UHGV virus genome: UHGV-0090851
From: a virus
Strand: one strand, 5' to 3'
Length of the DNA stretch: 37,840 bases
The notes under the pieces were generated by a model, which was not told the origin of the DNA, did no database searches, and saw nothing but the letters and a program-made list of their open reading frames with translations. Numbering within the stretch: position 1 is the stretch's first letter; every line of letters begins with the position of its first letter. Below, piece by piece: positions 50 through 31,778 of this stretch. The position numbers and the translations under genes are program-made.

Positions 50-1147
50 ATGGCGTACTATAACATAGAGAAACGACTAAAATCCGATGGCACACCACGC
101 TATCGCTGTAATGTGATTATCAAAGAAAAAGGTGTTATCACTTACAGGGAAAGCAAAACATTCCCTAAACATGCTCATGCCAAAACATGGGGCACACAGA
201 AAGTGATGGAATTAGATCTATATGGCATTCCATCATCAAATGCAGTTGACGGACTTACAGTCCGTGACTTACTACACAAATATTTAAATGACCCAAATGC
301 CGGAGGTAAAGCAGGCCGTACTAAAAGATATGTGCTGGAACTGCTTATGGATAGTGACATCTCCGCGATCAAACTATCTGAACTGACAGAAAATGACGTA
401 ATTGAACATTGCAGGCTAAGAAACAACGCTGGCGCAGGTCCAGCAACAGTCAGCCACGATGTTAGTTATCTTGGCAGTGTTCTGGATGCGGCCAAACCTG
501 TATACGGAATTAATTACACATCAAACCCGGCGAAAAGTGCTCGTCCATATCTACTTAAACTTGGTTTGATTGGTAAATCAAACCGTCGTAATCGTAGACC
601 AGCATCTGATGAACTGGACATGCTCATTGAAGGCCTTCAACAACGATCTACTCATAAATGCTCAAAAATTCCGTTCGTTGATATCCTCAAATTTTCTGTG
701 TGGTCCTGTATGCGAATCGGAGAAGTATGCCGGTTACGATGGGAAGATCTCGACCAGGAACAAAAATCTATACTCGTAAGAGACAGGAAAGATCCACGCA
801 AAAAGGAAGGCAACCACATGAAAGTAGCCTTGCTTGGGGAAGCCTGGGATATCGTCCAACGACAGCCCAAAAAATCGGAATTCATTTTTCCATATAACAG
901 CACTTCTATTACTGCGGGATTTCAGAGGGTAAGAAGCAAATTAGGTATTAAGGATCTGCGATACCATGATTTGCGTAGAGAAGGGGCAAGTCGCTTATTT
1001 GAGGCTGGTTTTAGTATTGAGGAAGTAGCCCAGGTTACAGGGCATCGTTCATTAAACGTGCTATGGCAGGTATATACCGAACTGTATCCGAAATCTTTAC
1101 ATAATCGTTTTGAAGAGCTCCAAAGGAGCAGAAATAAGACCCCTTGA
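50..1147 (+). CDS. Tyrosine recombinase / phage integrase
   Basis: 365 aa ORF with ATG at 50. C-terminal catalytic region HDLRREGASRLFEAGFSIEEVAQVTGHRSLNVLWQVYTELY fits the R..H..R..Y tyrosine recombinase signature. Confidence 0.88.
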   Translation: MAYYNIEKRLKSDGTPRYRCNVIIKEKGVITYRESKTFPKHAHAKTWGTQKVMELDLYGIPSSNAVDGLTVRDLLHKYLNDPNAGGKAGRTKRYVLELLMDSDISAIKLSELTENDVIEHCRLRNNAGAGPATVSHDVSYLGSVLDAAKPVYGINYTSNPAKSARPYLLKLGLIGKSNRRNRRPASDELDMLIEGLQQRSTHKCSKIPFVDILKFSVWSCMRIGEVCRLRWEDLDQEQKSILVRDRKDPRKKEGNHMKVALLGEAWDIVQRQPKKSEFIFPYNSTSITAGFQRVRSKLGIKDLRYHDLRREGASRLFEAGFSIEEVAQVTGHRSLNVLWQVYTELYPKSLHNRFEELQRSRNKTP

Positions 1148-1195
1148 CACTGTTTATCCATACAGTTAAAAATAATACTGTATACAAACACAGTA
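1144..1195 (+). promoter_or_regulatory. dinI promoter region with two tandem LexA (SOS) boxes
   Basis: TTGACA at 1144-1149. CTGT-N8-ACAG at 1150-1165 and a near-consensus 20-mer TACTGTATACAAACACAGTA at 1176-1195, 14 nt upstream of the dinI start. Confidence 0.65.
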
Positions 1196-1208: not shown

Positions 1209-1457
1209 ATGCGTATTGAAATCTGCATAGCCAAAGAAAAAATGACTAAAATGCCAACCGGTGCTGTGGATGCGTTAAAGGAAGAATTAACCCGACGCAT
1301 CAGTAAACGTTATGACGATGTAGAGGTGATCGTAAAAGCCACCAGCAACGATGGCCTTTCTGTTACACGCACCGCAGATAAGGATTCTGCAAAAACTTTT
1401 GTTCAGGAGACTCTGAAAGATACCTGGGAATCTGCTGACGAGTGGTTTGTTCACTAA
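1209..1457 (+). CDS. dinI: DinI-family DNA-damage-inducible protein
   Basis: 82 aa; MRIEICIAK...[33 protein letters not shown] matches the DinI/MsgA family; LexA boxes immediately upstream; ATG at 1209 with SD GAGGGA. Confidence 0.85.
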
Positions 1458-22742: not shown

Positions 22743-23795
22743 TTATTTCCCCACCAGTTCACTTACCTCTTTCACCGTCTGATTAAACCGCTCTGACTCA
22801 AGTTCAACACCTAACGCCCGACGCCCCAGCGCCATTGCTGCTTTTATTGTGGAACCGGATCCCATAAAGAAATCAGCAACCAGATCACCAGGTCGACTAC
22901 TGGCATTGATTATTTGCCGGAGCATATCCGTCGGTTTCTCGCACGGATGTTTACCCGGGTAGAACTGAACGGGCTTATGCGTCCAGACATCGGTATAAGG
23001 CACGGAGACTGATACGGAGAAATAGCGCCGGAGAGATTTAAACTCATCCAGCAATTCAGAATATTTGCGATTCAGTGAATCATAAGATGCCACCAGCTGG
23101 TGGTGTGGTTGTTCCAGTTGTTGTTCCTGAAACTTCTCTGCCGCTATACGGGAAAACAGTGCCTGTAACTTCCGATAGTCAGCCTCATTCGGCAACTGCC
23201 ACTGACTGGCACCAAACCAGTGGGAAACCATATTTTTCTTACCTGTGGCTTCGGCAATTTGTTTTGCCGTTATACCCAGTTCGGCACGAGCATCCCTGAA
23301 ATACGATATCAGCGGTGCCATTATGTGCTGTTTGAGTTCCCTTTCTTTTGCCGCATAGCCGTCACTTTTGCCGCGATATGGCCCCCGGTAATGTTCAGCA
23401 AACAGAACGCGCTCTGTGGCAGGAAAATATGCGCGCAGACTTTCTTTATTACACCCATTCCAACGTCCGGACGGCTTCGCCCAGATGATATGGTTAAGCA
23501 CGTTGAAACGTTCACGCATCATGATCTCAATATCAGATGCCAGGCGATGCCCACAGAACAGGTAAAGGCTTCCGGCAGGTTTCAACACCCGCCAGAACTG
23601 GGCCAGACAGTGGTCCAGCCACTTAAGGTAATCTTCGTCCCCTTTCCACTGATTGTCCCAACCGTTAGGTTTCACCTTGAAGTAAGGCGGATCGGTAACA
23701 ATCAGGTCAATGGAATCATCAGGCAGGGACTGAATAAAATGCAGGCAATCAGCGTTGATTAAATCAACACTGTTTATTTTTACAGTATTTTTCAT
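22743..23795 (-). CDS. DNA methyltransferase, beta-class (DPPY then FxGxG), probably N6-adenine
   Basis: 350 aa; DPPY motif near the N-terminus (LIVTDPPYF) and AdoMet-binding motif near the C-terminus (DFFMGSGST); ATG verified; no adjacent restriction endonuclease. Confidence 0.85.
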   Translation of the reverse strand: MKNTVKINSVDLINADCLHFIQSLPDDSIDLIVTDPPYFKVKPNGWDNQWKGDEDYLKWLDHCLAQFWRVLKPAGSLYLFCGHRLASDIEIMMRERFNVLNHIIWAKPSGRWNGCNKESLRAYFPATERVLFAEHYRGPYRGKSDGYAAKERELKQHIMAPLISYFRDARAELGITAKQIAEATGKKNMVSHWFGASQWQLPNEADYRKLQALFSRIAAEKFQEQQLEQPHHQLVASYDSLNRKYSELLDEFKSLRRYFSVSVSVPYTDVWTHKPVQFYPGKHPCEKPTDMLRQIINASSRPGDLVADFFMGSGSTIKAAMALGRRALGVELESERFNQTVKEVSELVGK

Positions 23796-24401: not shown

Positions 24402-25154
24402 TTATCTTGTCACTTTTCTCAATTGTGTCTCTGCATATGCTTCTTCCTGCCAGCACTTTGTAACCAGTTTATCAATGACATCTGCATATCCTTTGTACCA
24501 CTGATAATCCGTCAGATCCGGTACCAGCTTCTGGACATGATGCCGCGCCAGTGTGGTTGGTAAACGGCTAAACCGGTTTCCATTGCAACGCCCACAAACC
24601 TTATAAACAGGCGCACCATGAAGCCGGGTTCTTTTTTCATCCAGGACAATACCTTTACCCTTACACCCTCTGCACGCTGTGCTGACTTCTCCCTTACCAT
24701 GACAATGCTGACATAGTTCCTTCACCCACTCTTCCTTGATAACAGATTCCCCGCTTCTGGAGTGTTTCACCACTTCGCGCAATACATTATGAAATCCAGT
24801 ACCAGCACAATGCTCACAGCGAGCCTTACTTGCCGCAGACCTGGAATAATCAGCAAAGGCAAAATTCACAAGGTAAGGAATAATCTGTAGCCGGGTTTCT
24901 TCACTCAATTTATTCAATGTCGGGTTATCCAGTGCCATCGCGTAATTGAGCAGACCTTCAATCGCAAACTGAGGATCCTGAACACCAACTTTTGCCAGGA
25001 ATAAGGCAAACCCAAGCGGTGCTTTCGACTGCACCATCCCCTGCGCAGCCATCACATCCGTAATTGTTAAACCACCAGAGCCTGTCGCCGGTGCGTCATC
25101 GCTCAATTTTGGAGATTTTGGGGAGTAATATTTCGGTAAGGCTTCAAGGTTCAT
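24402..25154 (-). CDS. Late-gene antiterminator Q-like protein
   Basis: Several CxxC zinc-ribbon motifs; position immediately upstream of pR'/tR' and the lysis cassette. Start preferred at ATG 25152-25154 (SD GGAGA) over the table's GTG at 25181. Confidence 0.7.
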   Translation of the reverse strand: MNLEALPKYYSPKSPKLSDDAPATGSGGLTITDVMAAQGMVQSKAPLGFALFLAKVGVQDPQFAIEGLLNYAMALDNPTLNKLSEETRLQIIPYLVNFAFADYSRSAASKARCEHCAGTGFHNVLREVVKHSRSGESVIKEEWVKELCQHCHGKGEVSTACRGCKGKGIVLDEKRTRLHGAPVYKVCGRCNGNRFSRLPTTLARHHVQKLVPDLTDYQWYKGYADVIDKLVTKCWQEEAYAETQLRKVTR

Positions 25155-25167
25155 GCTCGTTCTCCAC

Positions 25168-26163
25168 TTACGCCAGTACACCTATTGCCAGCGCACGATC
25201 GATAAAACGAAATATCAGCTCCAGCTGGGAGCCATACTTCTCTTCAAATGCCACGGTATCCGCATGCAGCTCGTCGTGATGCTTTCTGCACAAAGGCAAC
25301 ACAAAAAGGTCATGCGCTTTTGTTCCCATTCCACCCTGACCGTGACCTATCAGGTGGTGGGGATCATCAGCGGGCTTTCCACAACATGCACACGGCTGTG
25401 TCTTAACCCAGCGCGTGTACTTTTCATTAACCCAGCGGCGACGTTTTGGGCGTAACATAAAAGACTCCGGCGACTCCGGATCCACTTTCAGCGCCAGCAC
25501 CTTTTTCGCCTTATCCTGGATGATGCTGGTGGCAGGAACCGAAGGCACAAGGTCACTTTCCCGGGTGACAGACGGCACAACAGGCTTCGGTAATCTCAGT
25601 GCCTTACGGGCTGCACTTTCCGGTAAGGCGTCCGCCAGGTCATTACGAATCAGCCACCAGCACAGTTCCGGCATTGTCACAACGTGACTGTCATCAAAAC
25701 CGAGATCCCGACGCACAACAGACAACACCCAGCGGGCACAGTTATCCGTTGCCATTGATTCCAGCCGTTCCGTGAACTGATCGCGCAGCTGGTTATCGCA
25801 GTGCCAGCACAGACGGATTGCGCCCGGAGCGTGTCGCATTGTTGTCATGTTCTCGCTGTGCCAGTCGGAATGAAGCCACTGGCAGCCTTTTTCACGAAGT
25901 AACCAGCTTTCAAGACATTCCACGCCACCAGCACGACGGATCACTGCCTCATTGCGGAACACGGCCCGAACGGCAGGATCATCCGCCAGCGGTTGTGATG
26001 CCGCGGGAACGGCACCACTGGCGAAAGATGAATAACGTTCCGGCTCAGGCTCCAGCAGGACACGCCCCTGCATAAACAAGGGCATCAGCTCTGAACCTGG
26101 CCTGAACAATACGATCCCCATACGCGGGGCAATTTCAGGGGTCAGTAGTGCTCTCACGGTCAC
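25168..26163 (-). CDS. Conserved lambdoid nin-region protein (DUF968-like, C-terminal Cys/His cluster)
   Basis: 331 aa; CACCGK...HH...H cluster; GTG start; family name from memory only. Confidence 0.5.
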   Translation of the reverse strand: MTVRALLTPEIAPRMGIVLFRPGSELMPLFMQGRVLLEPEPERYSSFASGAVPAASQPLADDPAVRAVFRNEAVIRRAGGVECLESWLLREKGCQWLHSDWHSENMTTMRHAPGAIRLCWHCDNQLRDQFTERLESMATDNCARWVLSVVRRDLGFDDSHVVTMPELCWWLIRNDLADALPESAARKALRLPKPVVPSVTRESDLVPSVPATSIIQDKAKKVLALKVDPESPESFMLRPKRRRWVNEKYTRWVKTQPCACCGKPADDPHHLIGHGQGGMGTKAHDLFVLPLCRKHHDELHADTVAFEEKYGSQLELIFRFIDRALAIGVLA

Positions 26164-26164
26164 C

Positions 26165-26974
26165 TCAATGAACGGTATCGAGCAGCTTTAACAGCTCTGG
26201 GAATCGGGATTCGAAGAAATGCGGCTGCGTCTCGCGCGGATTTGCGGGACTGGTGATGTTCTTGCCGAACATGCAGCCTTTCGCCGTCAGCGACCAGAAT
26301 TTTTTGATGTTGTTAATCGCTGTACGGCTGTATCGTTCGCGCTGTTCGACGATCCCCAGCTTCGCCATCTGGTGATATGCCTGATTAGCCGTAAGGCGGA
26401 TACCATACTGTTTCAGCAGTGCACTCAGCGACAGCGTAGGGCGACTTGAGCCATCAGGCGCGTCAGCAGGAGCATCAATGGCATAGCGCGGTGCCAGATT
26501 CGGTAAGCCAACAGCCTCCTGGAGTTTCTGACAGGCACCAAGCACAGATGAGTTAGACAGGTTTAACTCCCGGCGCATAAAGTCCAGCAGAATCACGCCA
26601 GCCTGCATCTTGTCAGCAGCCTGTCCGGATAACTTTTCCGGCGCGCTGGTTACCATATCGAAAGTACGGATCACCTTCAGATGGAATGACGGGCTGATCC
26701 ACATTGCATAGGCATACACCAGTTCCTTACAGACATACGTTCCCCGTTCATTTCCCCCATGAATCACACTCACCGGGTCAACACCCAAATTCTGGGTGTT
26801 GGTCAATTCATGAACAAGCTCAACAGTTTGTTGGCTGGAAAGAAACTTTCCCGGCTCCTTGGTTCTGGCATTTGCACCAGATGCTACTGCTGCGCGATGC
26901 AGATCGTTCAGGCTGTAACGCCCATAAGCATCACGACGAACTTCAATACCATCAATGACCATCAGATTATTCAT
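26165..26974 (-). CDS. KilA-N domain protein
   Basis: Start at ATG 26972-26974 with strong SD AGGAGA; N-terminus MNNLMVIDGIEVRRDAYGRYSLNDLHRAA typical of KilA-N. Confidence 0.7.
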   Translation of the reverse strand: MNNLMVIDGIEVRRDAYGRYSLNDLHRAAVASGANARTKEPGKFLSSQQTVELVHELTNTQNLGVDPVSVIHGGNERGTYVCKELVYAYAMWISPSFHLKVIRTFDMVTSAPEKLSGQAADKMQAGVILLDFMRRELNLSNSSVLGACQKLQEAVGLPNLAPRYAIDAPADAPDGSSRPTLSLSALLKQYGIRLTANQAYHQMAKLGIVEQRERYSRTAINNIKKFWSLTAKGCMFGKNITSPANPRETQPHFFESRFPELLKLLDTVH

Positions 26975-26993
26975 ACTTCGTTTCTCCTTTTGC

Positions 26994-27383
26994 TCAGGCG
27001 GCTGCACCCGCCGTTTTCTCGTACTTACTGATAGTGATCTCGACCTTCCCTTCCGGGATAACCGGTCCCCACTCCACCAGCATTCTTTTCACCTGTCTGT
27101 CGTCTTCCCACACACCCGCGTGGGTCAGGGCGTCAAACAGCGCCTTGTTATAGTTGTCCAGATCGCGGATCCGGTTATCCGGAGGAAACAACACGATCTC
27201 CACTGAAGCAGGTGCCGACGTTGGTTTTGGCAGACGACGTAACTGCTCAACTATTGCTGCGCACGCCGCGCTCTGAAATTTTCGCCCCGCCGCGCTTATC
27301 AGGCTCTTACCAGAAAATGCCCCTTTGTTGGGGTGTCGCCAGTACGTGTTCACGCTGGGCGGAAAAGGCAGGATCAGCTTCAT
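26994..27383 (-). CDS. rusA: Holliday junction resolvase RusA
   Basis: 129 aa; RusA-like motifs (LPFPPSVNTYW...RDLDNYNKALFDALTHAGVWEDDRQV). Confidence 0.85.
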   Translation of the reverse strand: MKLILPFPPSVNTYWRHPNKGAFSGKSLISAAGRKFQSAACAAIVEQLRRLPKPTSAPASVEIVLFPPDNRIRDLDNYNKALFDALTHAGVWEDDRQVKRMLVEWGPVIPEGKVEITISKYEKTAGAAA

Positions 27384-27706
27384 ACTTTCAGGTCCCTCTC
27401 ATGTAACCAGTGGGTTGCACGCAGCCTTGCGTTTTCCTCACCGGCAAGCAGTGCGCGGATAATCCCGACCGCCTCGCTGTCGTCGTCCTTCACCGCGGTA
27501 TGAAGCGTTATCCCCCGGGCCACGCCACGCTTTATCGTGATGACGCCTTTTTTCTCCAGTGCGCGAAGATGCTCCACCGCTGCATTCACTGAACGGTATC
27601 CCAGCATGGTTGCCACCTCCTGATTGGTTGGCGGAAAGCCACGCTCTTTCTGATAAGAAATCAGCATATCCAGCACCTGCTGCTGGCATTGAGTTAATGT
27701 CGTCAT
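27380..27706 (-). CDS. LexA N-terminal DNA-binding-domain homolog lacking the S24 peptidase domain
   Basis: 108 aa; strong similarity to the LexA winged-HTH as recalled, including the recognition helix (SVNAAVEHLRALEKKGVI vs LexA SPNAAEEHLKALARKGVI); no catalytic domain. Confidence 0.7.
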   Translation of the reverse strand: MTTLTQCQQQVLDMLISYQKERGFPPTNQEVATMLGYRSVNAAVEHLRALEKKGVITIKRGVARGITLHTAVKDDDSEAVGIIRALLAGEENARLRATHWLHERDLKV

Positions 27707-28356
27707 GCCGCCATCTCCCTGACCAGTTTTTCCGCCTGCTGGCGAACCTGCGCCAGAAACGCCTCACCACATGCCTCAAGTTCATCGCGCCCGATGTAGC
27801 TGATTGCCGGTCCCTTCCAGGTCTTGTCAAAAACAGCAATAGCACCAGCGAAAAAAGCTCCTGTCGGTACCTGCTTCTCGTCTTTCGGGATAAACCAGAC
27901 AGGCAGTTCAAAACCAATACGCCCGCGAATAAAAGCAATATGATCTGCATCTTCCGGCCACCACACTTCGCTGGTGGCAGCTTTGATCAGGAAAACATAG
28001 CGCCCGCCCTTATCACGCATGGCACTGGCATGTTTCATGATGTAACGCATGCCGGTGATGTATTGCCCCTCATGCTGACTGGCGCGGCTGTATGGAGGAT
28101 TACCAAAGGCAGCACCTTTAAGCTCCGCAAGGCGTTCTGACCAGTCATGCGCCAGCGCGTTGTCTTCCGCCGTGTAATACGCGGCACATTTGGCGTTATC
28201 ACCGTCAGTGAACAGATCCAGAACAAACGGGCCAAACAGGGTGTTAATTCCCCAGAAAATGTTGTCCGGCGTGCGCCACTGATCACCCACTTCCTTCAGT
28301 TCATGGGCTGGTTTGTTCCGCAGTTCCACCAGCTCCTGGCAATATTTATTACTCAT
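27703..28356 (-). CDS. Phage Dam-like DNA N6-adenine methyltransferase
   Basis: Start taken at ATG 28354-28356 (TAATG overlap with the upstream stop); conserved WRTP near the N-terminus and FGNPPYS catalytic motif. Confidence 0.8.
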   Translation of the reverse strand: MSNKYCQELVELRNKPAHELKEVGDQWRTPDNIFWGINTLFGPFVLDLFTDGDNAKCAAYYTAEDNALAHDWSERLAELKGAAFGNPPYSRASQHEGQYITGMRYIMKHASAMRDKGGRYVFLIKAATSEVWWPEDADHIAFIRGRIGFELPVWFIPKDEKQVPTGAFFAGAIAVFDKTWKGPAISYIGRDELEACGEAFLAQVRQQAEKLVREMAA

Positions 28357-28844
28357 TAAGCCCCCACGTAATTCCCTGACAGATACCACTCATCACCCGA
28401 TACAGCGCGCTTGCTGCTTTTCCGTAAACACTGCTCACGACGCACCAGAAAATTGTTTCGTTCTGGCTGGGAGTGGCTTTCACGGAATGCCGCCATCCAC
28501 ACCGTTGCAGCACGACGGTATAGGCCCCTGGACTCCAGTTCTTCCGCCTGGCGGGTCAGGCACAAAATCACCCGGGGATCGTTAGTGCCGACATAGAAAT
28601 TGCGCACAGGTCTGGTTTCACGAACTGGTTGTGGTTCCGGCTCCTGCGCTCTCTCAGTCAGGCGTGGGAAATGTCTGCGTGTATCTCCTTCACAACGGTG
28701 AGCCACACGCCCACTCTGACGTAACTTGCTTGCTGACTGCAGAACGCGCTGCCGTGAGTAACCTGCAAAAGCATCCGCAATGTCTCCGGAAGTACACCCC
28801 GGATGGGCTTCAATGAATTTCTGAACTTCATTCAAAAGACTCAT
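28356..28844 (-). CDS. Hypothetical protein, possible winged-helix N-terminus, in the helicase-loader position
   Basis: About 162 aa from ATG 28842-28844; follows the replication initiator where lambda P or DnaC-like genes usually sit, with no resemblance to them. Confidence 0.4.
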   Translation of the reverse strand: MSLLNEVQKFIEAHPGCTSGDIADAFAGYSRQRVLQSASKLRQSGRVAHRCEGDTRRHFPRLTERAQEPEPQPVRETRPVRNFYVGTNDPRVILCLTRQAEELESRGLYRRAATVWMAAFRESHSQPERNNFLVRREQCLRKSSKRAVSGDEWYLSGNYVGA

Positions 28845-28846
28845 GA

Positions 28847-29839
28847 TCACCCCCTGAATCCTGCCGGGATCTGGCTGTAGTCCACGTTGTCGTAACTGGC
28901 TTTGAAGTACGGGTCTTCACGTTTTTCTGTGTGCGTGCTGACGGACGGCGATAAGCGCAGGGAAAGCTCATCCCATTTTTCCCGCAACTTCGACGGGCTG
29001 AGCACGTTACGGCACCAGAACGGATCGCGGCTGACGCGGCTGTACATCTCGCAGATTTGTTTGTGAGTACGACCATCCTGCACACACATCAGGCGAATTT
29101 CGTTTGCCCAGGCTGTCCAGTTCGGTTCTTTGGGACGAACCACCTCGCCGTCACATTCGGCGGCCTGCTCGTACAGGGCGATGATTTTTTTCCAGAGCCA
29201 CTGTGCGCAGGTCAAATCATCCTGCGTTCCCCACTGGCGCTTTTTAGGGCTGAATACAACCGCATCAGGATGGCGAGTTAAAAACTCCTGTTCAGCCGTT
29301 TGCGTGTCCGGTTGCGAAGCGTCCGGACGAGAAGAGGTTTTATTCTCTGTAGTAATCTCTGTTGTATTCTCTGTAAGATCATTGGGCCATTTTGACCCGA
29401 TGACAGCGTGTCGTTTTGAACCAATGGATCGTGTCATTTTGCGCCCATCCATCAGGTCACTTTGACCCGATGGAGAAGTGCATTTTGACCTGATCGATTC
29501 GTTCACTTTGACCTCTTCTAAAAGCTCACTTTCATAGTTGATCGTGTAGAAGTTGGTCATGTCACGCTTCGATTTATTGAGTTGCTCGCGACGCAAAACC
29601 CCAAGTGATTTCAGGCTTGCAAATGTGCGTTTCAGAGTGGACTCTGACCAGAACGGAAACTGCTCCAGCCACTGTTCTGTCGTGTTATAAACCCAGCGAA
29701 TTCCGCCATGCTCAGTGCCTGAATTCGTTTCATTCAGCCAGTAATGAAGCTGCTGCAACACAATTGCCTCATTCAGACCAATACGGCATGCAAGATCACG
29801 ATTTATCACAATGGGCTGGGATGTCATTAACAGGCTCAT
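28847..29839 (-). CDS. Replication initiation protein (lambda O-like replisome organiser) carrying the origin
   Basis: 330 aa; iteron array and AT-rich tract lie inside the coding sequence as in lambda O; ATG verified at 29837-29839. Confidence 0.7.
   Translation of the reverse strand: MSLLMTSQPIVINRDLACRIGLNEAIVLQQLHYWLNETNSGTEHGGIRWVYNTTEQWLEQFPFWSESTLKRTFASLKSLGVLRREQLNKSKRDMTNFYTINYESELLEEVKVNESIRSKCTSPSGQSDLMDGRKMTRSIGSKRHAVIGSKWPNDLTENTTEITTENKTSSRPDASQPDTQTAEQEFLTRHPDAVVFSPKKRQWGTQDDLTCAQWLWKKIIALYEQAAECDGEVVRPKEPNWTAWANEIRLMCVQDGRTHKQICEMYSRVSRDPFWCRNVLSPSKLREKWDELSLRLSPSVSTHTEKREDPYFKASYDNVDYSQIPAGFRG
29388..29516. repeat. Origin of replication: six 23-bp-spaced iterons
   Basis: CATTTTGACCCGATGA, CGTTTTGAACCAATGG, CATTTTGCGCCCATCC, CACTTTGACCCGATGG, CATTTTGACCTGATCG, CACTTTGACCTCTTCT, with an AT-rich tract containing short TTCTCTGT repeats at 29337-29385. 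Confidence 0.65.
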
Positions 29840-31085: not shown

Positions 31086-31778
31086 ATGAACATAGGAAAT
31101 CGAGTCAGACAACTTCGCCAGGCGAAGAACATGAAAATCGCCGATCTCGCTGAAGCAATAGGAGTGGATGCGGCGAATATCTCGCGCCTCGAAACAGGTA
31201 AGCAGAAACAATTCACTGAACAAGCCCTGAGTAATATTGCCAGGAGCTTAGGTGTTGATATTGCTGATCTCTTTACCTCAGACCTCAAAAGTAATACTGT
31301 ATGTAAAAACAGTATTAGTGAGGATGTTGCGCAGGTGAAGGATGTATTCCGTATTGAAATGCTGGATGTCAGTGCCAGTGCGGGAAATGGCCTTATCCAG
31401 GGCGGTGATGTCATTGATGTGATTCATGCCATTGAATACAGAACTGATAATGCTGTATCGATGTTTGGTGGACGACCAGCAAATCACATTAAAGTTATCA
31501 ACGTTCGTGGGGACAGTATGTGTCCAACCATTGAGCCAGGAGATCTCATCTTCGTTGATATCAGTATCAATCAGTTTGATGGGGATGGTATATATGTATT
31601 TGGTTTTGATGATAAAATTTACGTCAAACGACTGCAAATGATACCTGATAAACTGCTGGTAATTTCTGATAATCAGATTTACCGCGAATGGGGAATTACC
31701 AGCGAAAACGAACACCGGTTTATGGTCTTTGGAAAGGTCTTAATCAGTCAGTCACAAACCCTTAAGCGACACAATTAA
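31086..31778 (+). CDS. CI-type phage repressor (HTH plus S24 LexA-like peptidase domain)
   Basis: 230 aa; N-terminal HTH (VRQLRQAKNMKIADLAEAIGVDAANISRLETG) and C-terminal autocleavage domain (VRGDSMCPTIEPGDLIFVD...VKRL). Confidence 0.9.
   Translation: MNIGNRVRQLRQAKNMKIADLAEAIGVDAANISRLETGKQKQFTEQALSNIARSLGVDIADLFTSDLKSNTVCKNSISEDVAQVKDVFRIEMLDVSASAGNGLIQGGDVIDVIHAIEYRTDNAVSMFGGRPANHIKVINVRGDSMCPTIEPGDLIFVDISINQFDGDGIYVFGFDDKIYVKRLQMIPDKLLVISDNQIYREWGITSENEHRFMVFGKVLISQSQTLKRHN

Follow-up and report, generated by a model that had tools for sequence, protein, structure and literature searches.

A LexA-like gene in the nin region

The virus genome UHGV-0090851, a stretch of 37,840 nucleotides that was analyzed at its full length and is referred to here as the window, carries on its minus strand a lambdoid prophage gene coding for a protein of 108 amino acids (27380..27706, ATG start, stop codon 27380..27382). 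The original prediction had described this product, by eye, as a LexA DNA-binding domain deprived of the autocleavage domain. The gene appears in the list of open reading frames, and its description as a stand-alone LexA DNA-binding-domain gene relies on the PF01726 and PHROG 362 profiles and on the ratio of non-synonymous to synonymous polymorphism (pN/pS) reported below.

Residues 1-65 of the protein matched all 65 positions of the LexA_DNA_bind profile (PF01726) with an E-value of 2.9e-19 and a score of 69 bits, to be compared with the curated cutoff of 23.7 bits. BLASTP aligned the protein with E. coli LexA over 90 amino acids with 43% identity (E=1e-21), while a phmmer search of the PDB sequences returned LexA entries only (1lea, 1jhh, 3jso and others) at about 1e-15. 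The LexA N-terminal winged helix-turn-helix proposed for the first ~65 residues, including the recognition helix, was thus confirmed. The PHROG 362 profile was matched over the entire protein, residues 1-108 aligning with positions 1-106 of 106 (E=3.8e-59).

An AlphaFold2 model was calculated using 22 homologues as input and showed a mean predicted local distance difference test (pLDDT) score of 84. The model displays the topology of LexA, with helices at residues 6-22, 28-35 and 40-52 and a two-strand wing at residues 56-58 and 66-68. Its secondary structure and the Foldseek results delimit the LexA-type winged helix-turn-helix to residues 1-68 (27503..27706, minus strand). The top Foldseek matches were 3jso, 1jhh and 1lea, with root-mean-square deviations of 1.0-1.3 Å. 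The best one corresponded to the LexA chains of 3jso, a complex of LexA with DNA, which superimposed at 1.0 Å over 67-68 residues with about 50% identity, so that the structure prediction proposed as a check on the relationship with LexA gave a positive answer.

Pfam profiles detected no Peptidase_S24 domain in the 108-amino acid protein, and the LexA domain bearing the Ser119/Lys156 dyad is absent. The full-length LexA equivalog TIGR00498 scored 70.6 bits, below its cutoff of 110.95 bits, and was matched at profile positions 1-91 of 203 only. On these sequence data the protein is a lone LexA DNA-binding domain without the autocleavage domain, as originally proposed, and RecA*-stimulated autocleavage is not expected because the catalytic domain is missing. 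A comparison with the PADLOC defense models gave a single weak and partial helix-turn-helix match to a CARF model (E=3.6e-4), and membership of a defense system was rejected on this basis.

Operon organization and selection

The translation signals of the gene can be read in the sequence (27703..27719, minus strand). A Shine-Dalgarno sequence, GGGAG, is located at 27715..27719, 8 nucleotides before the start codon ATG (27704..27706), which in turn overlaps the stop codon TGA of the preceding dam gene (27703..27705) as ATGA. A second ATGA overlap occurs at the other end of the gene (27380..27383, minus strand), where its stop codon meets the start of rusA, as expected for translational coupling. 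The gene belongs to a delayed-early operon of the nin type (24402..29839, minus strand) coding for O-like, PerC, Dam, the LexA-like protein, RusA, KilA-N, DUF968 and Q, with open reading frames that abut or overlap, and its position corresponds to the nin region of lambdoid phages. A consensus scan of the dam and perC sequences that precede the gene revealed no promoter-like site, and neither a convincing terminator nor a convincing internal promoter was found in the scan from O to DUF968. With its ATGA overlaps and Shine-Dalgarno sequence, and within an operon that runs without gaps as far as Q, the gene would in the simplest interpretation be expressed as a delayed-early function from pR, together with Q.

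Among the other members of the operon, a homologue of the PerC-family activators (yfdN-like) is encoded at 28356..28850 and a DUF968/HNH-like protein at 25168..26163, just before Q, both on the minus strand. Some database entries (P0026, P0092, P0098 and P0119) combine Dam (PF05869) and LexA_DNA_bind in one product of 168-185 amino acids. These joint products probably reflect frameshifts or wrong gene calls spanning the ATGA junction, the alternative being natural fusions.

Selection was evaluated on 83 full-length copies of the gene, representing 49 alleles, from IMG/VR and reference genomes. The alleles differ by 44 synonymous versus 13 non-synonymous variants, resulting in a pN/pS of 0.095, and none of the 83 copies contains a premature stop, demonstrating that the gene is under strong purifying selection. 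Homologues with 50-67% identity occupy the same slot, between PerC/Dam and RusA/DUF968, in prophages of Citrobacter, Kluyvera, Kosakonia and Enterobacter.

The recognition helix and the C-terminal tail

The recognition helix, SVNAAVEHLRALEK, was located on the alignments at residues 39-52 (27551..27592, minus strand). The residues of LexA helix III reported to contact DNA are S39, N41, A42, E44 and E45 (PMC3091678, a second-hand source), and four of these five (S39, N41, A42 and E45) are kept in the 108-amino acid protein. Comparison of the helix, SVNAAVEHLRAL, with that of E. coli LexA, SPNAAEEHLKAL, indicated that it is of the E. coli LexA type, and the 49 alleles show zero amino-acid changes in it. 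The most likely candidate target of the protein would be the canonical CTGT-N8-ACAG SOS boxes.

Downstream of the wing, a flexible acidic linker (residues 69-74; 27485..27502, minus strand), with pLDDT values below 50 at residues 71-74, leads to a conserved two-helix hairpin (residues 75-108; 27383..27484, minus strand), whose helices, at residues 75-88 and 93-103, were modeled by AlphaFold2 with a pLDDT of about 90. LexA has no counterpart of this C-terminal hairpin. A HMMER scan over 1.8 billion representative proteins returned 4611 matches, mostly LexA DNA-binding domains, with a small set of end-to-end relatives of 105-135 amino acids showing 40-53% identity. As these relatives have the tail motif E-A-v-x-h-h-R-x-L-h-x5-A-R-x2-A-x3-L-x3-G in common, the tail is the conserved part of a distinct subfamily and not a random read-through.

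The hairpin is most likely a putative dimerization element, and the hairpins of two subunits could form a four-helix dimer interface. On its own, the DNA-binding domain of LexA leaves a sulA-lacZ reporter unrepressed in vivo, while it represses when fused to any dimerizing protein, the principle of the LexA two-hybrid system (PMC7160566), so that a DNA-binding domain and a dimerizer are enough for repression at an SOS box. The tail could then supply the dimerization that the bare LexA domain needs for repression, which favors a role of the protein at SOS boxes.

Both HMMER and BLASTP aligned residues 78-90 (EAVGIIRALLAGE) with the hinge and cleavage-site region of LexA (EGLPLVGRVAAGE), placing A88-G89 of the E. 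coli alleles on the LexA cleavage bond A84-G85. This correspondence hints that the gene may have arisen from a lexA truncated immediately beyond the cleavage site. Citrobacter, Salmonella and more distant members carry other residues in place of the Ala-Gly pair, the sequences seen in the family being LLANE, LLVGE, VERESD and LTRKEN, and the segment is a helix in the AlphaFold2 model, in contrast to the strand-loop found in LexA. A vestigial cleavage site or substrate mimic ('LLAGE' versus 'VAAGE' in LexA) was then rejected as the main function: although the alignment is real, the pair is not conserved and is not considered a functional cleavage site, and the segment is predicted to be helical.

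SOS boxes in the prophage

The window was scanned for CTGT-N8-ACAG sites, as had been suggested, and four were found versus 0.44 expected by chance, all of them with extended ACTGT...ACAGT arms. An approximate position weight matrix based on published SOS boxes of E. coli assigned to the four sites scores of 21-26 bits, as high as those of genuine boxes, everything else in the window scoring 14 bits or less. When other half-site geometries were considered in the window (inverted, everted and direct CTGT or ACTGT, with spacings of 0-20), only the N8 inverted repeat was enriched, and an alternative operator geometry was therefore rejected.

Two of the boxes (CACTGTTTATCCATACAGTT and TACTGTATACAAACACAGTA; 1148..1195, plus strand), scoring 21.1 and 23.5 bits, are located directly upstream of a DinI-family gene (1209..1457, plus strand; PF06183, E=1.1e-19), a candidate target of LexA-type repression. 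The two LexA boxes originally assigned to dinI are indeed perfect CTGT-N8-ACAG sequences, at 1150 and 1178. The integrase gene (50..1147) ends within 3 bp of the boxes, and int and dinI are arranged in this way also in phage mEp460, whose depositors annotated a promoter at this position.

The third box lies within the gene of a cI-type repressor of the cleavable type (31086..31778, plus strand), in which Pfam recognized a helix-turn-helix and a Peptidase_S24 domain. Inspection of the sequence located the Ala-Gly site ('SAG'), the serine (GDSM) and the lysine (VKRL), in agreement with the cleavable cI that the prediction had placed in the same element. The near-consensus box TACTGTATGTAAAAACAGTA (31295..31314) reached 26.2 bits, the highest score in the window, and has perfect 8-bp arms (31293..31316, AATACTGTATGTAAAAACAGTATT). 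It occupies the linker codons between the helix-turn-helix and S24 domains and recurs, with a C/T spacer variant, in many related prophages and in Citrobacter. Candidate roles of this box are a roadblock to cI transcription or the control of an internal promoter. In at least 11 of 13 phage records, the LexA-like gene is accompanied by the cI allele with the internal box; since both are in one shared early region, linkage is enough to explain this co-occurrence.

The fourth box (TACTGTAAAAATAAACAGTG, minus strand; 23768..23787; 22.8 bits) covers codons 4-9 of a late gene coding for a 350-amino acid N6/N4 DNA methyltransferase (23795..22743, minus strand), which is the first of the large genes beyond Q, pR' and tR'. 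The arms of this box are kept in Kluyvera, Kosakonia, Enterobacter and the Citrobacter phage phiNP, in contrast to its spacer and to the amino acids encoded there, which vary. Since the box is conserved while the encoded amino acids change, the operator itself is under selection, suggesting that the methyltransferase is a LexA-controlled late or moron gene.

Further sites were observed in related prophages. In one IMG/VR locus (L082, 2319..2338) and 11 others, an SOS box, TACTGTATTTATGAACAGTG, is present in the intergenic region after rusA, at +766 from the start of the LexA-like gene. The region contains promoter-like hexamers (TTGAGC-17-TATTAC), and the box precedes by about 100 nucleotides a KilA-N gene whose product differs at the N-terminus; this looks like a LexA-controlled gene of the antirepressor type about 440 bp from the LexA-like gene. 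The KilA-N gene of the window overlaps rusA and is devoid of an SOS box. Many relatives (e.g., L008 and L026) contain a CTGT-N8-ACAG match with poor flanks, GGCTGTAAGTAACCACAGAG, in the replication/Rha module 2.3-4.3 kb upstream of the gene, probably a chance match within a conserved coding module. An identical prophage is integrated in E. coli CT29 (NZ_CP032073.1, L001) within the gene of a tRNA-dihydrouridine synthase, which bears the annotation of a partial pseudogene, and the end of the prophage and the host dinF-lexA operon are separated by about 4-5 kb; this closeness is probably a mere consequence of the attachment-site location.

Distribution and annotation

Near-identical copies of the gene were detected in 2233 of 5426 complete E. 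coli genomes (~41%), in up to four places per genome, and near-identical DNA (95-100% nucleotide identity) was found in 50 phage records. The carriers include SfV (orf42), SfII, SfIV, cdtI, mEp460 (mEp460_046) and Shiga toxin (Stx) converting phages of the Stx2a and Stx2c types. Existing annotations range from 'LexA family transcriptional regulator' and 'LexA DNA binding domain protein' to 'transcriptional repressor' (PHROG 362) and 'unknown', and some records bear the wrong labels 'SOS-response repressor and protease LexA' or 'RecA-mediated autopeptidases'. The structural assignment is thus already present in thousands of database records and is less novel than the original prediction implied.

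Full-text literature searches retrieved no functional study of the 108-amino acid protein of E. coli or Shigella. RefSeq assigns K-12 gene symbols to neighboring genes (yfdN, yfdP-R, ymfL) and none to the LexA-like gene, suggesting that it has no K-12 counterpart, which may explain the absence of a study. The literature searched also did not report the conserved C-terminal hairpin, the retention of a host-type recognition helix, or how widespread the gene is, Stx phages included, alongside strong SOS operators in the same prophages.

Proposed role and alternative explanations

Considering these data, occupancy of SOS boxes by the 108-amino acid protein without any response to RecA appears plausible, as supported by the E. 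coli-type helix, the four strong SOS boxes in the prophage and the conserved tail hairpin. We tentatively favor, at somewhat less than even chances, a dimeric, RecA-insensitive SOS-box repressor made during lytic growth. The gene would encode a functional DNA-binding regulator with sequence specificity, derived from a LexA of the gammaproteobacterial type that kept the winged helix-turn-helix, lost the S24 domain and gained a helical hairpin. Once cI repression is lifted, the protein would be translated from the pR transcript of the nin region with Dam, RusA and Q, would dimerize through the tail hairpin and would bind the canonical CTGT-N8-ACAG boxes. Lacking the S24 domain, it would be immune to RecA* and might re-impose a LexA-type repression in lytic growth, after cleavage of host LexA. 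Its putative targets would be the phage dinI, the box internal to cI, the box of the late methyltransferase and the host SOS promoters.

If the protein does bind SOS boxes, a very common prophage gene of E. coli, Shigella and the Stx phages would provide a LexA activity that persists in spite of DNA damage. During induction, the SOS response would then be altered in its shape and duration, and cross-talk among co-resident prophages with LexA-controlled antirepressors would be affected, possibly together with Shiga-toxin output. The interest of the gene resides in this potentially widespread and easily testable RecA-proof SOS repressor.

Several observations weigh against such a repressor. The contact residue E44 is replaced by V, and position 44 is hydrophobic or variable across the subfamily. 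Among 45 related loci with both flanks available, 20 are devoid of strong SOS boxes in the interval from -6 to +6.5 kb around the gene, and the Citrobacter phage phiNP has the methyltransferase box and no LexA-like gene between O and Q. A strict coupling of the gene to nearby SOS boxes is not supported, in view of these box-less loci and of phiNP, which also indicates that phage SOS boxes work with host LexA alone. Moreover, late transcription would run into a repressor that occupied the beginning of the late methyltransferase gene, an awkward position for a factor of the lytic phase. Finally, the one characterized truncated phage LexA homologue, gp6 of phage GIL01, is an activator with a changed target (PMC6182141).

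The latter precedent leads to the alternative that best survives, which we consider possible though doubtful, namely that the protein is a regulator with a diverged target. Like gp6, which recognizes a changed palindrome and activates promoter P3 (PMC6182141), it would bind its own phage operator and activate or repress a specific phage promoter, for instance in the tuning of late or nin-region expression, independently of SOS. The substitution E44 to V and the many carriers with no SOS box nearby speak for this alternative, and a different dimerization module could alter the spacing preference. The recognition helix, however, is far closer to that of E. coli LexA than the gp6 helix is, and the spacing scan of the window revealed no other (A)CTGT half-site spacing enriched and no alternative operator candidate.

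The RecA-insensitive repressor can also be extended to a full scenario, which we regard as unlikely as a whole, in which the protein acts as a RecA-proof 'SOS reset' and commitment factor. Host LexA would hold the phage SOS boxes in the lysogen. Removal of LexA upon damage would first raise two functions favoring lysogeny, namely dinI, with its dampening of RecA*, and the transcription of cI through its internal box. If cI still falls, the pR operon would produce the uncleavable LexA mimic, which would re-silence dinI, cI and the host SOS regulon, thus locking in lysis. The host genes silenced might include LexA-controlled antirepressors of rival prophages, colicins and SOS toxins. Were this scenario true, Stx phage induction and prophage competition would be modulated by a gene present in ~41% of E. 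coli genomes, Stx2a and Stx2c phages included.

An action in the lysogen is still less probable. According to this explanation, low expression by read-through or from a cryptic promoter would raise the threshold for derepression of SOS boxes, either stabilizing lysogeny or silencing the LexA-controlled antirepressors that co-resident prophages carry. The DNA-binding arguments given for the lytic repressor apply equally here, and both the occurrence of the gene in up to four places per genome and the SOS-box promoter located before the antirepressor-like KilA-N gene of some relatives, about 440 bp downstream, are consistent with it. Nevertheless, no promoter-like site was found by scanning the upstream region within dam or perC, the gene is translationally coupled in the pR operon, which is repressed by cI, and a constitutive uncleavable LexA would leave the host SOS-deficient.

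We attach a very low probability to a decoy acting at the protein level, in which residues 78-90 would mimic the hinge and cleavage region of LexA and dock into the S24 site of LexA, cI or UmuD, or be cut in trans, thereby modulating autocleavage. The LexA alignment does run through residue 90, with A88-G89 on A84-G85, but family members do not conserve the Ala-Gly pair and AlphaFold2 gives a helix in this region instead of the LexA strand-loop. A non-functional remnant of a captured lexA, carried passively in a dispensable nin region and with no known phenotype, is hardly credible in view of the purifying selection (pN/pS 0.095, 44 synonymous versus 13 non-synonymous variants, 83 stop-free copies), the conservation of tail and position across genera at 50% identity, and the Shine-Dalgarno sequence with the coupled start and stop codons.

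Comparison with known systems

The closest reference for the 108-amino acid protein is the N-terminal domain of E. coli LexA (1lea, 3jso), with which it shares the fold, the type of recognition helix, the H46-L47 and A49-L50 pairs and the same RGI wing motif. Unlike E. coli LexA, it is devoid of the S24/dimerization domain and of a conserved Ala-Gly site, carries V in place of E44 and has the extra hairpin. It also differs from LexA in being phage-encoded, within a delayed-early operon and with no SOS box at its own promoter region.

The GIL01 protein gp6 is a truncated LexA homologue, 44% identical to host LexA, that binds GaCACAnnTGTGaC and activates the late promoter P3 (PMC6182141). The 108-amino acid protein resembles gp6 of the tectiviruses GIL01 and Bam35 in being a stand-alone LexA winged helix-turn-helix of a temperate phage without the autocleavage domain, and gp6 is likewise the product of an early operon, the switch of its phage being linked to the LexA of the host. 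The two proteins differ in several respects: gp6 consists of 66 amino acids and ends at the wing, without a tail, whereas the 108-amino acid protein has one; the recognition helix of gp6 (SHKTAHRYL), which includes K38, is unlike the type of its host, while that of the 108-amino acid protein (SVNAAVEHL) is of the host type; and gp6 activates transcription by binding a non-SOS palindrome that overlaps the -35 element. BLASTP produced no alignment between the two at E<=100, and their identity in a MAFFT alignment was 33%. A close kinship with gp6 was rejected because of the missing BLASTP alignment and the different recognition helix; judging from the sequences, the two proteins are independent captures.

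A third comparison is provided by engineered proteins in which a LexA head is joined to a heterologous dimerization module. In the LexA-based bacterial two-hybrid system of Dmitrova et al. (1998), LexA residues 1-87 were reportedly used in the fusions. Such LexA-dimerizer fusions repress the sulA operator (PMC7160566), and the 108-amino acid protein has a similar design, with the phage LexA head followed by the tail hairpin. Differently from these laboratory constructs, which contain the authentic LexA domain, the phage domain is 51% identical to it and the dimerizing role of the tail is predicted.

The records of PHROG 362 and the RefSeq 'LexA family transcriptional regulator' entries correspond to the same gene as that of the window. 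Many solo LexA DNA-binding domains are also found among viral structure predictions, and the gene therefore belongs to a known kind, the stand-alone phage LexA DNA-binding domains.

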